Shown: piece by piece, positions 52,094 to 63,641 of the stretch
Layout: each line of letters starts with the position of its first letter
How positions within the stretch are numbered: position 1 is the stretch's first letter
From: Dehalococcoidia bacterium
Lineage (GTDB): Bacteria; Chloroflexota; Dehalococcoidia; UBA2979
Reading direction: 5' to 3'
Length of the DNA stretch: 64,000 nt
Assembly (NCBI GenBank): GCA_041690175.1
Contig: JAWLHV010000005.1
Location: 92,494 to 156,493, forward strand
Translations under genes and position numbers: made by a program
Notes under the pieces: generated by a model
Seen by the model: only the letters and a program-made list of their open reading frames with translations
What the model was told of the DNA's origin: nothing
The model's database searches: none

Positions 52094-53098
52094 ATGCCCA
52101 TGGCCCAGCCTGCGGACTTCGGCACGGACGTTCCCTCCGCCGTCCAGCGTCAGCATGCGGAGGTAGATGCGATCCGCCGCGAGGTGGGGCGCGTCATCGT
52201 GGGACAGCAGGCCCTGGTGGACCGGCTGCTGGTGGCGCTGCTGACCAACAACCACGCGCTGGTGGAAGGCGTCCCTGGCCTGGCCAAGACGCTCACCGTG
52301 TCCACGCTCGCCGCGGCGCTGGAATGCACGTTCGCGCGCATCCAGTTCACGCCGGACCTGCTGCCGGCGGACGTGACGGGCACGCTGATCTTCAACCCCC
52401 AGGAGAGTGACTTCCGCGTCCGCCGCGGGCCGATCTTCGCCAACATCGTGCTGGCGGATGAGATCAACCGTGCGCCTGCGAAGGTGCAGTCCGCGCTGCT
52501 GGAGGCCATGCAGGAGCGCCAGGTGTCCATCGGCGGGCAGTCGTTGCCGCTGCCGGATCCGTTCCTGGTGCTGGCCACGCAGAACCCCATTGAGCAGGAG
52601 GGCACCTACCCCCTGCCCGAGGCCCAACTCGACCGCTTCATGATGAAGATCGTGGTGGACTACCCGGAGCGGGACGAGGAGCGTGAGATCCTGGCGCGCG
52701 CCCTGGCCGATGAGACGGACGGCGCCCGCCCCGCGGTCTCCATCATGGAGGTGGCCAACCTCCGCGCGGCGGTCCGCCAGGTGGACGTGAACGACCGCCT
52801 GCGCGAGTACGTGGTGCGCCTGGTGGAGGCGAGCCGCAATCCCGAGCGCTATCGCATGGGGGACCTGGCTCCGCTGATCGAGTACGGCGCGTCACCTCGT
52901 GCGGGCGTCTTCCTCGCCCGCGGCGCGCAGGCATACGCCTTCATCAACGGCCGCGACTACGTGACGCCGGAGGACATCAAGGCCATTGCCCCGGACGTGC
53001 TCCGCCATCGCCTGGTCCTGACCTACGAGGCGGAAGCGCGCGGCGTCTCCGCGGACCAGGTGGTCACGACGCTCCTCGAGGGCGTCGGGATTCCCTAG
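52094..53098 (+). CDS. MoxR-family AAA+ ATPase
   Basis: Walker A EGVPGLAKT, Walker B IVLADEINRA, and the MoxR sensor region [23 protein letters not shown]. Confidence 0.9.
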   Translation: MPMAQPADFGTDVPSAVQRQHAEVDAIRREVGRVIVGQQALVDRLLVALLTNNHALVEGVPGLAKTLTVSTLAAALECTFARIQFTPDLLPADVTGTLIFNPQESDFRVRRGPIFANIVLADEINRAPAKVQSALLEAMQERQVSIGGQSLPLPDPFLVLATQNPIEQEGTYPLPEAQLDRFMMKIVVDYPERDEEREILARALADETDGARPAVSIMEVANLRAAVRQVDVNDRLREYVVRLVEASRNPERYRMGDLAPLIEYGASPRAGVFLARGAQAYAFINGRDYVTPEDIKAIAPDVLRHRLVLTYEAEARGVSADQVVTTLLEGVGIP

Positions 53099-53108
53099 GG
53101 CCACCGCC

Positions 53109-54029
53109 GTGCCCTCCCGTCCCACCAGCGCCCCGCACGAGCCGCTTGCCCTGTCCGCGGGCCTCCTCGGCCGGGTGCGTGGCATCGAGATCCGCACGCG
53201 GCGGTTCGTCTCCTCGCAGGTGTCCGGCAACTACCGCTCGGTCTTCCGCGGTGCCGGGATCGAGTTCGCGGAAGCGCGCGAGTACGTCCCGGGCGACGAC
53301 GTGCGCCGCATCGACTGGAACGTCACCGCGCGCACCGGCACGCCCTGGGTGAAGGAGTACGTGGAGGAGCGCGACCTGACCGTGGTCTGCGCCGTGGACC
53401 GTTCGCCCTCCATGCTCGCAGCGAGGCCGGACGCGGGCCGCCTGCGGGCGTCGGCGGAACTGGTGGCGCTGCTGGGCTTCGCCGCCTCCTACAACAACGA
53501 CCGCACGGGGCTGCTGACGTTCAGCGACGGCGTGGACGCGTTCGTGGAGCCACGTCGAGGTACGCGCCACGTCCTGCGCCAGGTGCGTGACGTGCTGCAT
53601 GCAGACCTCGCACCGCGCCGCAGCACGGCGATGGCCCCGGCGCTGGAGCACCTGGCGCGCATGCTGCGGAAGCGGTCGCTGGTCTTCGTGGTCTCGGACT
53701 TCTTCACCAGCGGCTACGCCCAGGCGCTGCAGACGCTGGCGCGCCGGCATGACGTGGTGGCGCTGGTGCTGGTGGATCCCCTGGACCTGGAACTGCCGGA
53801 CGTGGGCCTGCTGGACGTGGTGGACGCGGAGACCGGCCGCCGCCTGCTGGTGGACACATCGGACGCCGGAGTGCGTCGTCGCTACGCCGAGGCCGCCGCC
53901 GCCCGCGCCACCGCACGGGACGCGCGCATCACCGGCGCGGGCGCGGACCAGGTGGAGATCCGCGTGGACCAGGACGTGGCGGAGCCCATGGCCGCCTTCT
54001 TCCGGCGTCGCGCGCTGGTCGCCCGATGA
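53109..54029 (+). CDS. DUF58 (vWA-like) protein partner of MoxR
   Basis: RRIDWNVTARTGTPWVKEY...VVCAVDRSPSM is the DUF58 signature. Confidence 0.85.
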   Translation: MPSRPTSAPHEPLALSAGLLGRVRGIEIRTRRFVSSQVSGNYRSVFRGAGIEFAEAREYVPGDDVRRIDWNVTARTGTPWVKEYVEERDLTVVCAVDRSPSMLAARPDAGRLRASAELVALLGFAASYNNDRTGLLTFSDGVDAFVEPRRGTRHVLRQVRDVLHADLAPRRSTAMAPALEHLARMLRKRSLVFVVSDFFTSGYAQALQTLARRHDVVALVLVDPLDLELPDVGLLDVVDAETGRRLLVDTSDAGVRRRYAEAAAARATARDARITGAGADQVEIRVDQDVAEPMAAFFRRRALVAR

Positions 54030-55021
54030 TCGCGGACCGGCGGATCGCCAGGGCTCTCAGGCTCGCTTGCGTGCCGATGCTCCTCGCGGTCGCGTTCACC
54101 CTCCCCGTGCCCGCCGGAGCGCAGGAGGCCGACCCCGCGCTGGAGGTCACGGCCTCGTTCTCGCCGCCAGCGGCCACGCTGGGCGACCGGGTCACGCTGG
54201 ACGTGCGCGTGCGGCACACCTCGGAGGTGGTGGTCACGGTCGAGCGCCCCGCCATCGAGGGCGCGGAGGTGCTGGGCGATGCGCAGCCCGTGACGGTGGT
54301 GCAGCCGGACGGCGCGGTGGTGACGTCCTACTCGTTCCGGTACCAGTTGTTCGTGCTCGGCGAGGTGGACGCGGGCCAACTGCGGGTGCGCTGGCTGCGC
54401 GAGGACGGCAGCACCGGCGGCTACGTCACGGCGGGGCCCATCCTGACGGTCGTCTCCGTGCGCGCTCCCGGAGACGTGGAACTGCGGCCATTGAAGCCCC
54501 CGCTCGCGGTGGCCGGCGCGCCTCCCGCGTGGGTGCGTCCCGCCGCCATCGCAGGGGCTGTGGCGCCGGTCGCGGTGGCGCTCGTGGCCGCGGTGGTGCT
54601 GTGGCGGCGGCGTCGGCGGCAACCGGAGGTGGAGGCGGAGCCGCACACGGCGGAGGAGCGCGCGCGAGAGCGGTTGGACGCTCTGCGCCGCCGACGGCTG
54701 GAGGACGACGAGGCGTTCCAGGCGTACTACGGGGCGATCGCGGTGTCCGTGCGGGACTACCTGGGCGACCGCTTCCACTTCAACGCGGCCGCGCTCACCA
54801 CGTCAGAACTCGAGCGGCGGATGACGGCTCACGGTGTGGACCGCTGGCAGGCGCGCCTGGTCGGGGGGCTGCTGGACCGCTGTGACCGCGCCGTCTACGC
54901 GCGCGACTACCCGGACCCCGCGTCCGCAGACCATGACCTGACCGTCGCCTACGAGATCGTGGAGCTGTCGCGACCGCGACAGCCCGAGCGCGCGGAGGCA
55001 GAAGCGGTGGCGGCGCCGTGA
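54026..55021 (+). CDS. signal-anchored membrane protein of Bat-like operon (BatD/DUF4381-like position)
   Basis: Signal peptide, a ~150-aa extracytoplasmic beta-rich domain, one TM (AIAGAVAPVAVALVAAVVLW), and a basic cytoplasmic helical domain. It is translationally coupled on both sides. Confidence 0.5.
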   Translation: MIADRRIARALRLACVPMLLAVAFTLPVPAGAQEADPALEVTASFSPPAATLGDRVTLDVRVRHTSEVVVTVERPAIEGAEVLGDAQPVTVVQPDGAVVTSYSFRYQLFVLGEVDAGQLRVRWLREDGSTGGYVTAGPILTVVSVRAPGDVELRPLKPPLAVAGAPPAWVRPAAIAGAVAPVAVALVAAVVLWRRRRRQPEVEAEPHTAEERARERLDALRRRRLEDDEAFQAYYGAIAVSVRDYLGDRFHFNAAALTTSELERRMTAHGVDRWQARLVGGLLDRCDRAVYARDYPDPASADHDLTVAYEIVELSRPRQPERAEAEAVAAP

Positions 55022-55974
55022 TCCTGGGGGAGGGCGTGACGCTGGCCGCGCCAGCGGCGCTGCTCCTGCTGGTGCCCCTGGCGCTGCTGTTCCTGGTGCG
55101 CGTCCGCTCACCTCGGCCCGCCGCGGCCGTCGCGGACATGGGGCCGCTTGCTGCGGCTGCGCGCACCACGTTGCGGATGCGGCTGCGCCGGCTCCCGGAC
55201 GTGCTGCGTGCGCTGGCCATCGTGGCGCTGGTGGTGTCCCTCGCCCGCCCGCGCGAGGGGCTGGCCGTGACCTCGCTCCCGGAGGAGGGCATCGACATCG
55301 TCGCTGCGGTGGACGTCTCGTCCTCCATGCGCAGCGGCTTTGACGGCCGCGAGTCGCGGCTGGAGGCGGCGCGTCGGGTGCTGGAGGAATTCGCCGGGAC
55401 GCTGGAGGGCGACCGCCTGGGCCTGGTGGCCTTCCAGTCGCGTGCGCTGACGCTCTCCCCGCTCACCAACGACATCCCGGCGATCCAGGCGCGCATCGAC
55501 CAGTTGGCGCCGGGGTTGGTGATGGACGGCACCGCCATTGGCCTCGGCATGGTGGAGGCGCTCACGCTGCTGGAGGACTCGCCCGCGCGCAGCCGCGTGG
55601 TGGTGCTGCTGACGGACGGCGCGAACAACGCCGGGGACGTCACGCCCGCGGACGCCTCGCGCATTGCGCAGGCGCTGGGCGTGCGCGTCTACACCATCGG
55701 CATCGTGCCACGGGTGGGGTTCGCCCTGGACCCCATCGACCGGCGGGCAATGGCGGAACTGGCGGAAGTCACCGGCGGGTCATTCTTCGACGCCGGAACG
55801 CCCGAGGAACTGAGCGCCGCCTACGAGGAGATCGGGACGCTGGAGCGCTCCCGGATCGGCGAGCGCGAGTTCGTCGCCTTCCGGGAGTTCGGCCCGTTGT
55901 TCGCACTGGGGGCGGCAACGCTCTTGCTGCTGGACCTCTCGCTCAGGGCGACGTGGCTGCGGAGGCAGCCGTGA
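55018..55974 (+). CDS. vWA-domain membrane protein (BatA-like)
   Basis: Two N-terminal TMs and a MIDAS motif DVSSSM...LTDGANN. Confidence 0.8.
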   Translation: MILGEGVTLAAPAALLLLVPLALLFLVRVRSPRPAAAVADMGPLAAAARTTLRMRLRRLPDVLRALAIVALVVSLARPREGLAVTSLPEEGIDIVAAVDVSSSMRSGFDGRESRLEAARRVLEEFAGTLEGDRLGLVAFQSRALTLSPLTNDIPAIQARIDQLAPGLVMDGTAIGLGMVEALTLLEDSPARSRVVVLLTDGANNAGDVTPADASRIAQALGVRVYTIGIVPRVGFALDPIDRRAMAELAEVTGGSFFDAGTPEELSAAYEEIGTLERSRIGEREFVAFREFGPLFALGAATLLLLDLSLRATWLRRQP

Positions 55975-57797
55975 TCCCCGGCGTGAGCGGGACGGGAGCG
56001 TGGGGAGAACCGCTGGCGCTGTCAGCGCTGGTGTTGCCGCTGCTGGCGCTGCTCGCGCTCCGCTATGCGCTGGCGCGTCGTCGCCACGTGGCTGCGGCCC
56101 TCGGTGGACCGCCCGGCCTGCGGGGTGGCCGCGAGGGGCGGCGCGTGGTGACGGGCGCGCTGCTGGTGGCGGCGCTGGCGCTGGCGGTGCTCGCGGCCGC
56201 GCGGCCGCAGTGGGGCGCCGGCGACCAGGCCCTGGAGCAGCGCGGCATCGACCTCGTGATCGCCCTCGACGTCTCGCGCTCGATGGAGGCCCAGGACGTG
56301 GCGCCCAGCCGCGCGGAAGCGTCGGCGGCGGGCCTCGCGGAGATGCTCACGCACCTCACCGGCAACCGGGTGGGCCTGGTGGTCTTCGCGGGCTCCGCCT
56401 TCGAACGCGCGCCGCTCACGGTGGACCTGCCGGTGCTGTCCTCCATGGTGGCTCGCGCCCAGGGGGAGGCGCCCCTCGTGCAGCCCGGCACGGACCTGGC
56501 CGCGGCAATCCAGGCGGCGCTCCGCGTGCTGGACGTGGACGAACCGGCGCGCACACAGGCCATCCTGCTGGTCTCGGATGGGGAGGATCTGCGGCCGTCG
56601 CTGGCGGAGGCGCTGGCCGCCGCGGACGAGCGCGGCGTGCGCGTCTACACCGTGTTCGCGGGCACCACCTCGCCCGCGCCGCTGCCCGCCCCGGGAGGCG
56701 GCACCCGCCCGGACGACCTCAGCACCGCTCGCCCGGAGGTGCTGCAGGAGGTCGCCAGCGCCACCGGTGGCGCCTTCCGCAGCGTGGAGCAGGTGGCGGG
56801 CCTGGCGGTGGAGTTCCGCCGGCTCCAGCAGACGCAGTTCGCCTCTGACGTGCGGCCCGCCCTGGTGGATCGCTTCCCGTGGTTCGCCGGCGGCGCGCTC
56901 GCCCTCCTGGCGCTGGCCATGCTGGTGGGCGAGGGCGGTCGGCCGCCTCGTCCGAGGCTGCGGGGCGGCGTCATCACGGCGTCGCTGGTGGCGGTGGTCC
57001 TCGCGGGCTGTGGGACGGCGGCGTGGCGACACGTGGAGGACGGTAACCGCGCCTACGAGGAGCAGCGTTACGAGGACGCGCTGACGTCCTACCGCCAGGC
57101 GGCCGAGGCGGACGCGGACGACCCGGCGGTGGACTTCAACATCGCGAACGCCCTTCACCGGTTGCGCCGGCTGGAGGAGGCGGCCGTGTCCGCGCAAGCC
57201 GCCGTGCAGGGCGCGCTGGACCGCGAGGATCTCCCGCTGGCCGCGCTGGCGCACTACACCAGCGGCAACACCGCGTTCCAGCGGGAAGAGTGGGAGGGCG
57301 CCCGCGACGCCTACATCGCCGCGCTGCGCCTGGACCCCGAGGACCGGGACGCCAAGGCCAACCTGGAACTCGTGCTCGCCATCCTCGCTCCACCGCCGGA
57401 CGAACCCCCGGCAGGCGGCGAGCAGGAGGGCGAGGACGGCGACCCCGCCGATCCGGGCGACCAGGAAGGCGCCGAGGGCGGCGAGGGTGAAGGCGAAGGC
57501 GACGGCCAGCAGGGTCAGCCCGGACAGCAGCCCGGCGAACCGGGCCAGGGCGAGGGCTCCCCGGATGGGACGCCCGGCGATCCACAGCAGGGGCCGGCCC
57601 AGCCGGGCCAGGGACAGGACGGTGAACCGCTCCCCTCCAGCCTCCCGGAGGCGCGCCAGGCGCTGGCCGAGGCACTGGGAGCGCTGGGCCCGGAGGTCAC
57701 GGAGGCGGAGGCGCTGCGGATCCTGGAACTCGCCCGCCGCGCGAACGAACTGGAGCCGCTACCGGACGATCGCGGAGGTGGGCCCACGGCGCGCTAG
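55953..57797 (+). CDS. vWA-TPR fusion protein (BatB/BatC-like) with acidic Gly/Glu/Pro-rich tail
   Basis: MIDAS motif DVSRSM...VSDGED. TPR repeats (YEEQRYEDALTSYRQAAE...; GNTAFQREEWEGARDAYIAAL). The C-terminus is a low-complexity GEGEGDGQQGQPGQQPGEPGQGEG stretch. Confidence 0.8.
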   Translation: MAAEAAVIPGVSGTGAWGEPLALSALVLPLLALLALRYALARRRHVAAALGGPPGLRGGREGRRVVTGALLVAALALAVLAAARPQWGAGDQALEQRGIDLVIALDVSRSMEAQDVAPSRAEASAAGLAEMLTHLTGNRVGLVVFAGSAFERAPLTVDLPVLSSMVARAQGEAPLVQPGTDLAAAIQAALRVLDVDEPARTQAILLVSDGEDLRPSLAEALAAADERGVRVYTVFAGTTSPAPLPAPGGGTRPDDLSTARPEVLQEVASATGGAFRSVEQVAGLAVEFRRLQQTQFASDVRPALVDRFPWFAGGALALLALAMLVGEGGRPPRPRLRGGVITASLVAVVLAGCGTAAWRHVEDGNRAYEEQRYEDALTSYRQAAEADADDPAVDFNIANALHRLRRLEEAAVSAQAAVQGALDREDLPLAALAHYTSGNTAFQREEWEGARDAYIAALRLDPEDRDAKANLELVLAILAPPPDEPPAGGEQEGEDGDPADPGDQEGAEGGEGEGEGDGQQGQPGQQPGEPGQGEGSPDGTPGDPQQGPAQPGQGQDGEPLPSSLPEARQALAEALGALGPEVTEAEALRILELARRANELEPLPDDRGGGPTAR

Positions 57798-60170
57798 CGG
57801 CCCGCCCTGGACGCGGCCGAGCCGGAACACGCGACGCACCACCAGGCGGCGCAGCACGTTGCGGACCGTGCGGTACTGCTCGTCCGCCTGCTCCCGCTGG
57901 TCCTCGGTCTCCTCTGCGGCCTCGGGCCCGCCATAGCGCACGCCCGTGTACGAGCGCGCCAGCCCTCGCAGCGCCGCAGGCTCGCCGATGCGTGGGGCCA
58001 GGTCCTCCGCCGACTCAGCCGGCGTGCGGTCGTCCAGCACGCCGAAGCCGGCCCATGACGCCAGCCGTTGCACCTTTGCCCAGCGCCGCTCCGCCGGTGC
58101 GAGGCCCGCGTAGGCGCGCTCCCACCAGAACCGCGCGATCACGATGAGCACGATCGCCAGCGTGGAGGCGATGAGCGTCCACGCGATGATCCGCCCCACC
58201 GTCTCCCGCAGCGCGCTGTCCTCCGTGGTGATCGCCTCGCCACCCGCGGCGCTGTCCCGGAACTCCTCGTCCAGCAGGTCCAGCAGCAAGTCGTCCAGCA
58301 GGGCATTGAAGTCGTCGTCCACCGCCGGATCCACGGCGTCGCGCGCGTCGCGAGCGGCATCATCACTTTCAGGACGGCCCACTACACCCCGGCTGGGGGT
58401 TGGGTTGAACTCCACCCAGCCCAGGCCCGGGAAGAACACCTCCGGCCATGCCCACGCGCGTTCCTCGGTCACGCGGTATGCCTTGGTCTCCGCGTCCAGG
58501 TCGGCATCGTCCAGCGCAAACCCCACAGCCACACGGGTGGGGATGCCCAGGGAGCGCAGCATCACGGCCATGGAGGAGGAGAACTGGTCGAAGTAGCCCT
58601 GCTGAGACTCCAGCAGGAAGTGGGCGACCGCGTCTGAACCGGGCGGAGCCGCCTCGATGGCGAGCGAGAACTGGTAGTTCTGCCGCAGGTACGTCTCCAC
58701 GAGGCGGGCGGCCTCGTACGGCGTCTGCGCGCCGCTGGTCACGGTGCTGGCCAGGTCCGCCACCTCCGGCGGCAGGTCCGGCGGGAGGGCCGTGTAACGG
58801 TCGCGGATGGACTGTGGGTAGTCCGTGCCGGCCTCCAGGAGCGTGGGGATCGCGGCCACGGAGACGGTGCCCACCGTGCTGTACGACGTGCCGGGCCGTA
58901 CGGCGCCGGCGCTGGGCACCAGTGCCAGCGCCCGTCCGGAGGAGTCCAGCAGCAGCCGCGCATCCGCGTCCGTGGTCACGGGATCGCCCGCCGAGAGCAG
59001 CGCGGCGCCGGGCGCGTGCTCGCTGACCACCGTCACTTCCACGCGCAGGGGTTCGCGGATCTCCGCGCGGCTCGCGGGCGTGCCGAGTTCCGCCGCCTCC
59101 ACGGTGGTGCCCAGCAGGTCCACCGGTGCTGCGGAGGACACCCGCCACCCGCGGCCGGTGTACTCGTCGTACACGGCGCCGCGGACGTTCATCTCGTCCT
59201 CCGCCACCACCTCGAAGAGCACCTCGGTGTTGAGGAAGATCTCGCCTTGCAGCGGCAGGGAGGCGCCCAGGGCGTGCACGGGGATCGGCTTCTTGGAGCC
59301 CACGCCCACGAACAACTGGCCCAGCCGGTCCACTCGCTCGTTCACGGGAGCCAGGACGCGTCCCCAGGTGTCCGCAACCGGGCCCCAGTTGTTCGCCGTG
59401 GGGATCACCCACGCGGCGGCTACTAGCACCAGCGCGACCACGCCGCCGGCAAAGACCACCTCCACGGACATGCCATCGCTGGGCTTGACGCCCTCGCTGG
59501 ACCACCGGTCCACCGCGCGCAGGTAAGTCAGGCGCGCCACCAGCAGTACCGCCGCCAGGATGAAGACCACGAAGGAGAAGGCCGGCTGCCCCGGCAGATA
59601 GGAGATGTTGGTGAGCAGGACGAAGCCGCCGGGCACCAGCGCCACCCACGGGTTCCGCCAGCGCACCACGGCCCAGGTGGACACGAACGCCACCAAGAAC
59701 ACGCTGCTGACCAGCAGCACCACGAACGGCAGAGGGTCCGTGGAAATGCCGGAGTCCACCAGCGCGCGGCCCCACTCCAGCAGGCGCAGCCGGAACTCCG
59801 ACCAGCGCGCCCCCAGGCCGGTGGCCTCCGGGTCTGCCAGCACCATGGTCTGCAGCACCAGGGCCACGGTGGTGACCGCGCCCACGCCCAGGCCCGCCAG
59901 CGCCGCCATGCCGCCGTTCAGGCGCATGTGGCCCAGCACCCACGCGGCCGTCAGGCCGGCAGCCGCCGGCGCGAGCAGCGAGGGCATCTCCGACACCCAG
60001 TCGGACGTCTGCAGCGACCCCACCACGGGCAACTGCACCAGGATCACCAGCGACAGCGTCAGCCAGGACTCCCACGACCGCCAGGTGCGCTCGCGCACCG
60101 GCGTCCCGGTCGGCCTTGACGGCTGGTGGGGCCGCTCGAAGTAGCGTTCGAAGGAGACGGCCTGCGCCAC
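57759..60170 (-). CDS. polytopic transglutaminase-like (DUF3488/TgpA-type) protein, apparently lacking catalytic triad
   Basis: N-terminal 6-7 TMs. The TGc core region reads QQGYFDQFSSSMAVMLRSLGIPTRVAVGF ... RAWAWPEVFFPGLGWVEFNPT. The Cys-, His- and Asp-equivalent positions read F, R and N. There is a C-terminal TM and an acidic tail. Confidence 0.75.
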   Translation of the reverse strand: MAQAVSFERYFERPHQPSRPTGTPVRERTWRSWESWLTLSLVILVQLPVVGSLQTSDWVSEMPSLLAPAAAGLTAAWVLGHMRLNGGMAALAGLGVGAVTTVALVLQTMVLADPEATGLGARWSEFRLRLLEWGRALVDSGISTDPLPFVVLLVSSVFLVAFVSTWAVVRWRNPWVALVPGGFVLLTNISYLPGQPAFSFVVFILAAVLLVARLTYLRAVDRWSSEGVKPSDGMSVEVVFAGGVVALVLVAAAWVIPTANNWGPVADTWGRVLAPVNERVDRLGQLFVGVGSKKPIPVHALGASLPLQGEIFLNTEVLFEVVAEDEMNVRGAVYDEYTGRGWRVSSAAPVDLLGTTVEAAELGTPASRAEIREPLRVEVTVVSEHAPGAALLSAGDPVTTDADARLLLDSSGRALALVPSAGAVRPGTSYSTVGTVSVAAIPTLLEAGTDYPQSIRDRYTALPPDLPPEVADLASTVTSGAQTPYEAARLVETYLRQNYQFSLAIEAAPPGSDAVAHFLLESQQGYFDQFSSSMAVMLRSLGIPTRVAVGFALDDADLDAETKAYRVTEERAWAWPEVFFPGLGWVEFNPTPSRGVVGRPESDDAARDARDAVDPAVDDDFNALLDDLLLDLLDEEFRDSAAGGEAITTEDSALRETVGRIIAWTLIASTLAIVLIVIARFWWERAYAGLAPAERRWAKVQRLASWAGFGVLDDRTPAESAEDLAPRIGEPAALRGLARSYTGVRYGGPEAAEETEDQREQADEQYRTVRNVLRRLVVRRVFRLGRVQGGPLARRGPTSAIVR

Positions 60171-60173
60171 GGG

Positions 60174-61457
60174 CTACACCTTCCCGCTACCCGGCTCGGC
60201 AGCCATGCGCGCGGACTCGCGTTCGGTATCGATGCCGGCGGAGAGCACGCGACCAATGTCGTCCGTCTGCTTCACGGTGAACGTGTAAACGCCGCCCGAA
60301 GCCAGCGTGCTGTAGGCGTCCAGCGGGCTGGGCGCGTCCGCGAAGGTGTTGGCCTCCAGCAGCACCGCCGCCACCTTCACGCCACGCGTGGAGAGCGAGA
60401 TCAGCGTCAGTGGCCAGTCGGGGTCGGTTGAGGGCGTGACCACCACCACCGTCGTGTGCCGGCCGAAGCGGCGGGACTCCTCCAGGAGCAGGTTGGAGAG
60501 CGGTGCGTCGCCCACCGCGCGCGCCATGGCCAGCGTCTCCAGCATGCGCGTGTAGTGGTTCTGGCCGCGGTCCGGCTCATCGATCCGCAGGTCCTGCCCG
60601 AACGTCATCAGGCCCACCGTGCGGTTCTGCTGGATGAAGTACCGGCAGATCGAGGCGGCGACGGACACGGCCGTCTCCTCCGTGGAGTCCTCGCCCACGC
60701 CCACGTGGTGGCGGGCCTCCAGGTCCAGCACTACCCAGATGTCAGAGGCCGGGTCTAGTTCGAACAACTTGACCATCGGGTCGCCCATGCGGGCGGTGGC
60801 CGGCCAGTGGATGCGGTTGTAGGAGTCTCCCGGCTGGTAGGGGCGCAGGCCCGACACGTTGGGCGTGACGTTGTGCGTGCGGCGCCGGATGCGGCCCTCG
60901 CCCGGCAGGTTCGCCGGTGGCACGTAAAAATTGGCCAGGTCCGGGGCGTTCGGGTACACGAGGATCGAGGTGGGTTCGCCAAACGTGCGCGTGACGCGGA
61001 AGAAGCCGAACGGATCGGACGCCGTGACGCGCACCGGCCCCAGCGTGTAGACGCCGCGCAGCCGCGTGCGCGTCCGGTAACTCCAGGAGGTCACGCCGCG
61101 CACGCCCAGCGTGAGCACGCGATGCGCGGAGTGGCCGGGCACCGAGGACGGATCCTCCACCTCCAGCCACACCTTGGGCAGCAGGGAGCGGGAGCGCACC
61201 CAGATCTGACCCTCGAGGGGCTGGCCCTGGGTGACGCGCTGATCCGTGCGGCGGACCTCCACCTCCAGGCCGCGCGCCATCTCGCGTGTCCAGAAGTACG
61301 CGAGCGGGATGGCAATGACGATGACGTAGGCCAGCCGGAATAGCAGCCAGAAGCCGGTGGCGAACCCCACCACCACGCAGATCGCCGCGACGAACGCGGT
61401 CACGGAGACATTGGGATGGCCCCGGACCCAGGCGACGGCGCCGGCCACGGTCTCCAT
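60174..61457 (-). CDS. DUF58 protein with N-terminal TM helices
   Basis: YNRIHWPATARMGDPMVKLFE...IWVVLDL matches the DUF58 core. It is tightly packed between the MoxR gene (6-nt gap upstream) and the transglutaminase-like gene (3-nt gap downstream). Confidence 0.85.
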   Translation of the reverse strand: METVAGAVAWVRGHPNVSVTAFVAAICVVVGFATGFWLLFRLAYVIVIAIPLAYFWTREMARGLEVEVRRTDQRVTQGQPLEGQIWVRSRSLLPKVWLEVEDPSSVPGHSAHRVLTLGVRGVTSWSYRTRTRLRGVYTLGPVRVTASDPFGFFRVTRTFGEPTSILVYPNAPDLANFYVPPANLPGEGRIRRRTHNVTPNVSGLRPYQPGDSYNRIHWPATARMGDPMVKLFELDPASDIWVVLDLEARHHVGVGEDSTEETAVSVAASICRYFIQQNRTVGLMTFGQDLRIDEPDRGQNHYTRMLETLAMARAVGDAPLSNLLLEESRRFGRHTTVVVVTPSTDPDWPLTLISLSTRGVKVAAVLLEANTFADAPSPLDAYSTLASGGVYTFTVKQTDDIGRVLSAGIDTERESARMAAEPGSGKV

Positions 61458-61462
61458 GGTGG

Positions 61463-62419
61463 CTACGCGCCGCCGCGCGCGCGCACGCCGGGGACGGCTA
61501 CGCGGTGGATGACCTCGTCAATGACCTGCGCGGGATCGATGTCGCGGACGCGGGCGCTGGGGCTGACGATCACCCGGTGGCCCAGCACGGAGTACGCCAG
61601 CGCCTTCACGTCGTCCGGCTGTACGAAGTCGCGCCCGTCCAGCATGGCGTACGCCTGCGTGGCCCGCATGAGGCCCAGTGAGCCTCGAGGTGACGCGCCC
61701 AGGTAGACGGACTCGTGCTCACGCGTGGCCGTGACCAGGTTCACGATGTACTGCTTGATCAGGGGGTCCACGTAGATCTTGCCCACCGCGTCCTGCAGTT
61801 CCAGCAGTTCCGCCGGGCTGACCACCTGCTGCAGTGCCTCAATGGGGTGGCGCTCCTGCTGCGCGTCCATGATCAGCACCTCGTCCGTGGCGGACGGGTA
61901 GCCCAGGTGGATGCGCATCAGGAAGCGGTCCAACTGCGCCTCCGGCAGCGGGAAGGTGCCCTCGTACTCAATGGGGTTCTGGGTGGCCATCACCATGTGC
62001 GGCGAGGGCAGGCGGTGGGTGATGCCGTCCACCGTGACCTGGTGTTCCTCCATGGCCTCCAGGAGCGCGGACTGCGTCTTGGGGGTGGCGCGGTTCACCT
62101 CGTCCGCCAGGACGATCTCGGACATGATCGGCCCGGCCCGGAAGGTGAACTCGCCCGTGCCCTGCTGGTAGATCGAGACGCCGGTCACGTCCGTGGGGAG
62201 CAGGTCCGGCGTGAACTGGATCCGAGAGAAACGACACCCCGTGGACTTCGCCAGGGCCCTCGCCAGCATGGTCTTGCCCACGCCGGGGACGTCCTCGATG
62301 AGCAAGTGCCCGCGACAGAGGAGCGTGACCAGCGCCAAGCGCGCCTCCTCCGTCTTGCCGATGATCACGTGCTCCACGTTGGAGAGCACGCGCTCCGCAA
62401 CAATCCTGGGATCCTCCAT
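61463..62419 (-). CDS. MoxR-family AAA+ ATPase
   Basis: Start at [11 protein letters not shown] (ATG 62419, with GGAGG 7 nt upstream). Walker A DVPGVGKT, Walker [11 protein letters not shown], and [23 protein letters not shown]. Confidence 0.9.
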
Positions 62420-62636
62420 GACGCCTCCGATCAAGGCTGACCTTGGACGGTCAGGCTGGGACAGTCAGGCTGGGACGTCCCTGTGAAGGACACCCGCGAG
62501 CGCGTTGCCGGGTCAAGAGGGTGGGAGTGTACCGGGCTCTGCCACACCCGATGTGGGCGGAGTATAGCAATGACGCAAGTCATCTCCCCTGTCCCGGGCG
62601 TTACGATCGAAACCACGGTGCAACCTTCTCGGATCT

Positions 62637-63641
62637 ATGCCTGACCGGCCGCGAGGGCGGCGCTTCACTCGTCGAGCGGTGCTCGCGGGGGCCCTCGGCG
62701 TGCCGCTGGCCGCCCTGCTGGGCGCCTGTGGGGAAGAGGCGGAGCCGCCGGCAGCCGTGATCACCGGCACTCCCTTCGACCCCCCGACCGCAACCCCCAG
62801 TCCCACCACCACCGCGGAGGCGCCTCCCGGCACCCTGGAGGCGGCATTGGACCCGGCCGAGGTGGGCCAGGGCGAGAGCACCGTGCTGCTGGCCCGCCAG
62901 CCCGGCGCCGCCTCCGGGAGCGTGCGGTTCGTGGGGAAGCGCTATCCCCTGCTCGGCGAGGGCGACCAGGGGCACCTCTGGGCGGTACTAGGCGTGGGCC
63001 TGGGCGTGCCGCTGGGTGAAGACGTGGCTACGGTCACCACGCGCGACCGCGCCGGCGGCCCGCTGACCACGCTGGAGGTGCCGTTCACCGTGGTCAGCGT
63101 CCCGCGTCCGGTGGACTACCTGACGGCGAGCGCGGAGGTCACGGCCGTCCTGACGCCGGAGGCTGCGGAGATCGAGGCCGCCCTCCGCACCTTCGCGCAG
63201 TTCAACCGCTTCGAGGCGCGTCCCCGCTGGAACGGCCGGCTGGCGATGCCGGCCGAGGGCTTCATCACCACGGAGTTCGGCCAGGGCCGCTCGATCAACG
63301 GAGGCCCCGTGGGCGGCTTCCACAGCGGCGTGGATATCGCGAACGCAGCAGGAACCTCGATCCTGGCTCCCGCAGCGGGCCGCGTGGCATGGGTGGACGC
63401 GATGCCCATCCGCGGCAACAGCGTCCTGCTGGACCACGGCGCAGGCGTGGTCACCGGCTACCACCACCTGCTGGAGGCCACCCGCGAGGTTGGCGACTTC
63501 GTCGAAGAGGGTGATGAGATCGCGAAGATGGGTTCAACAGGGTTCTCTACCGGTCCCCACCTCCACTGGGAGATGACGATCTACGGCGTCAACGTGGACC
63601 CGCTGACGTGGACGCGGGAGATCTTCCTGCCGCGGGCGTAG
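62637..63641 (+). CDS. Tat-secreted lipoprotein-type M23 family metallopeptidase
   Basis: RRFTRRAVLAGALG twin-arginine signal with LGAC lipobox. M23 motifs HSGVDI, NSVLLDHGAG and GPHLHWE. Confidence 0.85.
   Translation: MPDRPRGRRFTRRAVLAGALGVPLAALLGACGEEAEPPAAVITGTPFDPPTATPSPTTTAEAPPGTLEAALDPAEVGQGESTVLLARQPGAASGSVRFVGKRYPLLGEGDQGHLWAVLGVGLGVPLGEDVATVTTRDRAGGPLTTLEVPFTVVSVPRPVDYLTASAEVTAVLTPEAAEIEAALRTFAQFNRFEARPRWNGRLAMPAEGFITTEFGQGRSINGGPVGGFHSGVDIANAAGTSILAPAAGRVAWVDAMPIRGNSVLLDHGAGVVTGYHHLLEATREVGDFVEEGDEIAKMGSTGFSTGPHLHWEMTIYGVNVDPLTWTREIFLPRA

Follow-up and report, generated by a model that had tools for sequence, protein, structure and literature searches.

Layout and catalytic positions of the TgpA-like protein

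The DNA analysed here is a 64,000-nucleotide stretch (the window) of contig JAWLHV010000005.1, from the Dehalococcoidia bacterium assembly GCA_041690175.1. On its minus strand, the last gene of a three-gene MoxR-DUF58 operon encodes an 803-amino-acid (aa) membrane protein related to the Pseudomonas aeruginosa transglutaminase TgpA. An initial annotation, made from the letters alone, had proposed that this protein is a pseudo-enzyme in which all three residues of the Cys-His-Asp triad are replaced. The open reading frame (ORF) and the two motif strings on which that proposal rested, GYFDQFSS (aa 525-532) and RAWAWPEV...WVEFNPT (aa 571-591), lie exactly where it had put them. The genes of the operon, and the domains and catalytic positions of the TgpA-like protein, are the following.

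61463..62434, minus strand: MoxR-type AAA+ ATPase, 323 aa, first gene of the operon (Pfam AAA_3, E 5.2e-64, and AAA_lid_2)
60174..61457, minus strand: DUF58 protein, 427 aa, with an N-terminal membrane anchor and no metal ion-dependent adhesion site (MIDAS) motif (Pfam PF01882, E 5.8e-22)
57759..60170, minus strand: TgpA-like gene with a predicted dead transglutaminase core, 803 aa, GTG start at 60170, stop at 57759-57761 (ORF list and translation, Pfam, 120 full-length homologs)
59403..60074, minus strand: N-terminal polytopic membrane domain, aa 33-256, TgpA_N/DUF3488-like (hydropathy and helices of the AlphaFold2 model; predicted local distance difference test, pLDDT, 83-97)
58851..59270, minus strand: extracytoplasmic beta-rich domain preceding the core, aa 301-440 (model secondary structure, pLDDT mostly 86-97; Foldseek against 6G49)
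58401..58757, minus strand: transglutaminase-like core, predicted catalytically dead, aa 472-590 (Pfam PF01841; highest conservation; dN/dS, the ratio of nonsynonymous to synonymous substitution rates, 0.14-0.15)
58590..58592, minus strand: F527, catalytic Cys position, codon TTC (F in 120/120 homologs)
58452..58454, minus strand: W573, catalytic His position, codon TGG (W in 116/120 homologs, F in 4/120)
58404..58406, minus strand: N589, catalytic Asp/Glu position, codon AAC (N in 120/120 homologs)
58206..58385, minus strand: acidic, poorly conserved linker, aa 596-655 (sequence; pLDDT 34-69)
58113..58205, minus strand: last transmembrane helix, aa 656-686, predicted to return the chain to the cytoplasm (hydropathy segment 661-679; model helix 654-686)
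57879..58082, minus strand: C-terminal helical DUF4129-like domain, aa 697-764, predicted cytoplasmic (Pfam PF13559; K/R-rich tail)

The core of the protein is matched by Pfam Transglut_core (PF01841) at aa 472-590 over nearly the whole profile (positions 2-108 of 108; 77.9 bits against a cutoff of 23; E 8.7e-22). For the flanking domains the matches stay below their thresholds, namely TgpA_N (PF11992; aa 60-431, 23 bits, cutoff 30) and DUF4129 (PF13559; aa 697-764, 23.9 bits, just under the cutoff of 24.8), and both families are precomputed for many homologs, PF11992 for close ones. A search of NCBIfam assigned no family to this protein or to its DUF58 partner. Hydropathy delimits five segments in the membrane domain, to which the AlphaFold model adds further helices, and the predicted topology places a 404-aa acidic loop containing the transglutaminase domain between membrane segments, followed by the last transmembrane helix and the K/R-rich tail. 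The model, built with the family alignment as input, has a mean pLDDT of 84.4 and exceeds 93 in the core. Its top Foldseek matches are the TgpA structures 6G49 and 6G4H (E 6e-13; template modelling score 0.69-0.70; 296 alignment columns with 6G49); 3ISR, 3KD4 and 9CRN are also recovered, and erythrocyte protein 4.2 is a weak match (E 0.26-0.63). The protein is a TgpA-family member by descent, fold, architecture and operon, not as an enzyme.

Catalytic residues were mapped onto P. aeruginosa TgpA (PDB 6G49), the sole solved structure reached by sequence. Three alignments, one by phmmer from the protein itself (E 2.4e-9), one from a 61-sequence profile (E 4.4e-21) and one from a family hidden Markov model that included the TgpA fragment, concur in placing F527 at the Cys, W573 at the His and N589 at the Asp. 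The TgpA segments G-F-C-A-H-Y, D-A-H-A-W and V-D-P-T face G-Y-F-D-Q-F, R-A-W-A-W and F-N-P-T, respectively. The substitutions of Cys by Phe and of Asp by Asn originally proposed are thus confirmed, whereas the proposed His-to-Arg change was read two positions out of register: the His is replaced by Trp, and R571 stands opposite a TgpA Asp in a variable column (R 64, D 20, N 12, Q 8, E 8, S 6, G 1 and L 1 in 120 homologs). In the AlphaFold model F527 opens helix 527-540, W573 sits on strand 572-580 and N589 follows strand 584-587, which are the canonical slots of the fold.

Cysteine is wholly absent from the protein, and in the alignment of the 120 homologs it stays at or below 10% in every column. 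Neither this survey nor the profile alignment to Transglut_core, which the initial annotation had named as a check, located a Cys/His/Asp triad elsewhere in the domain or the protein. Because there is no cysteine, thiol-based transamidation, deamidation or proteolysis is, judging from the sequence, impossible for this protein. The protein has the profile match and the papain-like/transglutaminase core fold of the transglutaminase superfamily, not the Cys-His-Asp(Glu) triad.

Conservation, selection and descent of the triad-less clade

The substitutions are conserved throughout the lineage. We collected 120 full-length homologs (45-100% identity), all of which, where a source name is given, come from metagenome-assembled genomes (MAGs) of Chloroflexota/Dehalococcoidia. 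The Cys position is F and the Asp position N in every one, the His position is W in 116 and F in the other four, and 89 lack cysteine altogether. A scan of one genome per species, whose search patterns included GWVEFNPT and are hence biased to this variant, found relatives with intact ORFs in 148 species-level genomes. We kept 80 genome loci, all Chloroflexota/Dehalococcoidia by record title, in which the three positions read FWN (71 loci), FFN (6) or SWN (3). No second gene with a transglutaminase domain, that is, no active paralog for a dead copy to regulate, was found in the window or in the 80 loci. The names given to these proteins in databases, "transglutaminase" or "transglutaminase-like putative cysteine protease", are wrong as statements of activity for the whole dead clade. 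Several MAG titles look generic or doubtful (Dehalococcoides mccartyi; Thermoflexus hugenholtzii JAD2 for loci L037 and L045). One MAG labelled D. mccartyi (CAMDAY01) carries a different dead-clade gene on each of two contigs (L017 and L026), reflecting either a duplication or a mixed bin.

Purifying selection acts on the gene, most strongly in the dead core. In comparisons with four relatives, dN/dS was 0.14-0.15 for the core and 0.23-0.38 for the full gene, and ORFs are intact, with no sign of decay across the range 0.14-0.38. Within the FWN group, the transglutaminase core has the largest share of columns conserved at 90% or more (43%), followed by the juxtamembrane helices (32%), the beta-rich, pre-core and membrane domains (21-24%), the DUF4129 tail (15%) and the last transmembrane helix (6%). 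Conservation is lowest in the acidic linker (aa 596-655), the extreme N-terminal tail excepted.

Much of what is conserved in the core is shared with active-type relatives. G525, Y526, D528, A531-M534 (A-S-A-M), R539, P544, R546, G550, W575, E577, F580, G584, W585, F588 and P590 are identical in the dead and Cys-His clades. The dead clade shows relaxed conservation at Y328, Y501 and Y551, which the active clade conserves at 85-100%; its other consistent changes are G554 to D, S434 to G and Y697 to W. No new Cys, Ser or Thr nucleophile was gained in the core of the dead clade in this comparison. H299 (codon 59274-59276, minus strand) is present in 88% of the dead clade versus 9% of Cys-His relatives. 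In the FWN group H299 is invariant, alone among the His residues of the extracytoplasmic part, and it lies outside the core in a juxtamembrane segment modelled with low confidence (pLDDT 58-69).

The wider family was charted with an exhaustive HMMER search of 1.84 billion representatives, which returned 1,613 hits at E <= 1e-30. The 150 best hits start with FWN proteins, the nearest ones, and go on to FYN, FFN, FFS and similar types; from about 34% identity down they are C-H-E (59 domains), S-H-E (27) and a few C-H-D. When 40 sequences of the C-H-E group are aligned, Cys and His show no exception and Glu is nearly invariant. Neighbour joining of 138 full-length representatives groups the triad-less proteins (F/Y at the first position, W/Y/F at the second, N/S/D at the third) into one clade of 50, a bipartition recovered in 198 of 200 bootstraps with the three triad columns left out. 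Its sister relatives have an invariant Cys-His-Glu or Ser-His-Glu triad. The catalytic residues lost in the dead clade are therefore kept by its active relatives. Within the clade, FWN nests inside F-[Y/F]-N, and basal members keep Asp (FYD, YFD, YYD) or, in one case, His and Asp (FHD). Such nesting suggests that the nucleophile was lost once, in a common ancestor, and that the other two triad residues were replaced step by step afterwards. The triad loss is ancient and clade-wide in this Chloroflexota lineage, which accounts for roughly one in three of the 150 nearest family representatives and is present in no fewer than 148 species-level genomes.

The MoxR-DUF58 operon and the convergent Bat-like operon

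As the initial annotation had recognized, the gene belongs to a MoxR-DUF58 operon; Pfam matches identify both partners in the window, and the arrangement recurs in 79 of the 80 related loci. Spacing in the window is tight (5 bp between moxR and the DUF58 gene, 3 bp between the latter and the TgpA-like gene). The DUF58 gene adjoins the TgpA-like gene in 80/80 loci, and MoxR lies directly upstream in 77/80; of the other three, all of which end at a contig edge, L026 has no MoxR and the matches in L001 and L015 are to the MoxR of the Bat-like operon described below. The window ATPase is an AAA_3 protein with intact Walker A (PGVGKT) and Walker B (LADEVN) motifs next to a DUF58 gene, as in MoxR systems of the MRP subfamily. 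The DUF58 anchor appears as one hydropathy segment (aa 22-40), which reads by eye as a two-helix hairpin.

We considered loss of the DUF58 MIDAS motif as a correlate of triad loss and discarded it. DUF58 proteins associated with TgpA-like genes have LDLEARHH, LDLDRRVQ, LDAQRCVQ or MDGQATAQ at the motif in four contexts (window, L083, L084 and L085), and the Bat-type DUF58 protein has VDVSAS. Since DxSxS is absent alike in dead, Cys-His-Glu and Ser-His-Glu contexts, its absence is a property of this DUF58 subtype.

Active-type relatives share the operon to different extents. Across 85 of their loci, MoxR and DUF58 genes accompany all 12 Ser-His genes with enough upstream sequence; the 35 Cys-His loci include 11 with both, 5 with DUF58 only and 19 with neither. 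In the dead clade, the single F-H-D representative has only a DUF58 gene beside it. A PF01035 gene (methylated-DNA-protein-cysteine methyltransferase-like) lies directly downstream of the TgpA-like gene in an F-Y-N locus (L083, 4604-5116) and in a C-H-E locus (L084, 8436-8939), and a DUF2007 gene comes next in C-H-E and S-H-E loci (L084 and L085); both neighbours probably reflect lineage synteny.

Tail-to-tail with the operon, on the plus strand, lies a second MoxR system.

52094..57797, plus strand: Bat-like operon, tail-to-tail with the MoxR-DUF58-transglutaminase operon (Pfam)
52094-53098, plus strand: Bat-like MoxR (Pfam)
53109-54029, plus strand: Bat-like DUF58/vWA protein, with MIDAS (Pfam)
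54026-55021, plus strand: DUF4381 gene of the Bat-like operon (Pfam)
55018-55974, plus strand: BatA-type vWA protein (Pfam)
55953-57797, plus strand: vWA-TPR protein (Pfam)
62637..63641, plus strand: M23 (LytM-type) peptidase gene, divergent from moxR (Pfam PF01551, E 2.6e-27)

The 3' end of the vWA-TPR gene overlaps that of the TgpA-like gene by 39 bp (57759-57797). Bat (Bacteroides aerotolerance) operons are widespread, and their products are thought to form a membrane-associated complex (PMC3557215). Window positions 52094-57797 resemble them in combining MoxR, DUF58, BatA/BatB-type vWA and vWA/TPR genes. All five genes are present in 57 of the 80 related loci; of 40 loci inspected row by row, seven have no Bat-like gene, and all seven end at a contig edge. 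The MoxR-DUF58-transglutaminase operon together with a convergent Bat-like operon also occurs at distant dead-clade loci of the F-Y-N (L083), F-Y-D (L166) and Y-F-D (L168) types, so the pairing runs throughout the dead clade (FWN, FFN, FYN, FYD and YFD). By contrast, a convergent Bat-like operon was found at none of the 36 active-type loci with at least 5 kb of downstream sequence.

The M23 gene is syntenic as well: most related loci have it upstream, and so does L166, the distant locus of the F-Y-D type. Its presence is a hint of some link to the cell wall and speaks for peptidoglycan in these organisms. Dehalococcoides is not known to have peptidoglycan. The idea that catalysis was lost along with peptidoglycan is unsupported, given a conserved M23 peptidase gene directly upstream.

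A retained fold in known systems and its possible function

The TgpA/MoxR/DUF58 module and transglutaminase-fold pseudo-enzymes are already known; what this analysis adds is a monophyletic dead Chloroflexota clade and its pairing with a Bat-like operon. The open-access literature yielded neither a published description of a catalytically dead TgpA clade nor a report of a fixed pairing between Bat and MoxR-DUF58-transglutaminase operons. TgpA of P. aeruginosa (PA2873) is essential, its periplasmic domain has transglutaminase activity in vitro, and its gene is the third of a unit, co-transcribed with the upstream PA2875 and PA2874 (PMC3507681). The window protein shares with it the polytopic N-terminal membrane domain, the extracytoplasmic transglutaminase domain and the position as third gene; it differs in having Phe-Trp-Asn instead of Cys-His-Asp and no cysteine, and the two are about 21% identical over the periplasmic domain. 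We take PA2875 and PA2874 to be the MoxR and DUF58 proteins of that unit.

The MRP-type MoxR-DUF58-transglutaminase arrangement has been described before (Wong & Houry 2012, as cited in PMC6803598), and the aaa-atp/duf58/tgm core of the bifidobacterial PFNA cluster (PMC6803598; PMC12067865) has its three genes in the same order, ending in a polytopic membrane "transglutaminase". The window operon departs from that cluster in lacking a Ser/Thr kinase or FN3 gene, in its dead transglutaminase and in the tail-to-tail Bat-like operon. Inactive transglutaminase folds serve in binding or scaffolding in EPB42 (erythrocyte protein 4.2), Rad4/XPC and FBXO21 (PMC10318531). These proteins resemble the dead clade in keeping the fold without the catalytic residues. 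Unlike it, they are eukaryotic and soluble, have other architectures and contexts and lost catalysis independently, so that the analogy is one of principle only. The nearest active-type comparators are the Cys-His-Glu and Ser-His-Glu TgpA-like proteins, of which the one named example is from Chloroflexota. They are about 29-36% identical to the window protein over their full length, have the same domain order and share nearly the same core framework (GY-x-DY..AS.M...R..G.P.R...G; A-x-W-PEV-F; GW-EF-PTP). They are set apart from the dead clade by an invariant C (or S) and H, by E at the third position and by the lack of a convergent Bat-like operon in the 36 loci with enough downstream sequence.

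With the triad lost and the gene under purifying selection that is strongest in the dead core, the proposal that the protein is a pseudo-enzyme is supported by its sequence. We consider it quite likely that the dead clade, a monophyletic, triad-less Chloroflexota branch of the TgpA family, has kept the domain as a non-covalent module coupled to MoxR and DUF58. A binding or scaffold role is what we infer for this domain, and a module kept for binding or for structural reasons agrees better with the evidence than a substrate mimic, the other role raised at the outset. The domain would persist on the outer face of the membrane, where it may hold, rather than modify, an envelope component on which active relatives act. 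The aromatic pair F527/W573 would replace the thiolate-imidazolium-carboxylate network, with N589 possibly hydrogen-bonding the indole NH. The membrane domain and the DUF4129 tail could couple the dead domain to DUF58, as a membrane-anchored adaptor, and to the MoxR ATPase in the cytoplasm, and MoxR, together with DUF58, might serve to assemble the complex or to remodel it. Since the tail-to-tail Bat-like operon is found throughout the dead clade, the context suggests that two MoxR systems act on one envelope-associated assembly. The strictness of this pairing gives a testable lead to a link between the two systems, both of them widespread. The clade also amounts to a natural experiment on the TgpA/MoxR/DUF58 module: fold and module have been kept for long without the chemistry, and therefore at least part of the module's function needs no catalysis.

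Several points weigh against this interpretation. The binding or scaffold role and the coupling to MoxR, DUF58 and the Bat-like system are drawn from gene order and domain topology only, and we know of no ligand, partner or phenotype for the dead clade or for any TgpA. The Bat-like pairing could be synteny inherited inside one phylum and not functional linkage. The F527/W573 pair may leave the cleft open or plug it. The tree is distance-based, midpoint-rooted and built from 50%-identity representatives, and the taxonomy of the relatives was taken from record titles only.

That the apparent triad loss is an artefact has virtually no chance of being correct. TTC (Phe) and TGC (Cys), like AAC (Asn) and GAC (Asp), are one base apart, and an error at the Cys codon was a possibility raised with the initial annotation. 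Sequencing error is excluded because close relatives carry the same F/W/N residues, and sequencing or assembly error and a decaying pseudogene are alike ruled out by the 120 independent homologs, the 80 genome loci and a dN/dS well below 1 over an intact 803-codon ORF. TGG (Trp) moreover differs from CAY (His) at all three positions. A misalignment hiding a real triad is opposed by the agreement of three alignments and by the lack of cysteine.

An enzyme with new chemistry, in which the constraint on the core would reflect a new catalytic site built from other conserved residues (e.g., D528, E577, E587 and the clade-specific H299 and D554), seems improbable to us. The core is indeed the most constrained region, D528, E577 and E587 are highly conserved, and H299 and the change of G554 to D distinguish the dead clade. 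Yet the first three are equally conserved in active clades, which marks them as framework residues and not gains; no Cys, Ser or Thr nucleophile was gained; Tyr residues that are auxiliary in the active clade have lost their strong conservation; and H299 lies in a low-confidence segment outside the core. The triad positions themselves vary among inert aromatics (F/Y at 527; W/Y/F at 573) and N/S/D, as expected for packing or binding. We assign a very low probability to a mere structural spacer, its cleft plugged by the aromatic pair and binding nothing, so that the membrane domain and the DUF4129 tail would carry out the whole function of the protein. In its favour, the Cys and His positions are taken by two bulky aromatic side chains that could fill the cleft, and the membrane domain has many invariant residues too. 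For a mere spacer, however, one would expect neither the highest conservation and the tightest constraint in the whole protein nor a surface framework almost unchanged from that of active enzymes. Speculatively, and with rather low confidence, we note that the conserved job of the whole TgpA family might be non-catalytic, a MoxR/DUF58-driven structural or assembly role at the envelope to which catalysis was an accessory, dropped completely by one large Chloroflexota lineage when its operon became fixed beside the Bat-like system. Both systems would then be one envelope machine with the dead transglutaminase as its outward-facing binding subunit.

Triads are altered elsewhere in the family as well. 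The tree holds a separate further loss, A-L-N, among active-type sequences. In S-H-E TgpA-like proteins (e.g., P0168, P0172 and P0176; loci L085-L088, L092-L096, L100, L103, L108, L109 and L151), Ser stands for Cys with His and Glu intact. They form several groups intermixed with C-H-E proteins in the tree and may be serine-nucleophile enzymes on a transglutaminase fold. Four giant proteins of 1,845-3,142 aa (P0194, P0198, P0229 and P0264) have three or four tandem TgpA-type transglutaminase cores and mix intact (C-H-E/C-H-D) and altered (S-H-D, S-S-D, G-H-D, A-H-E) triads in one polypeptide.

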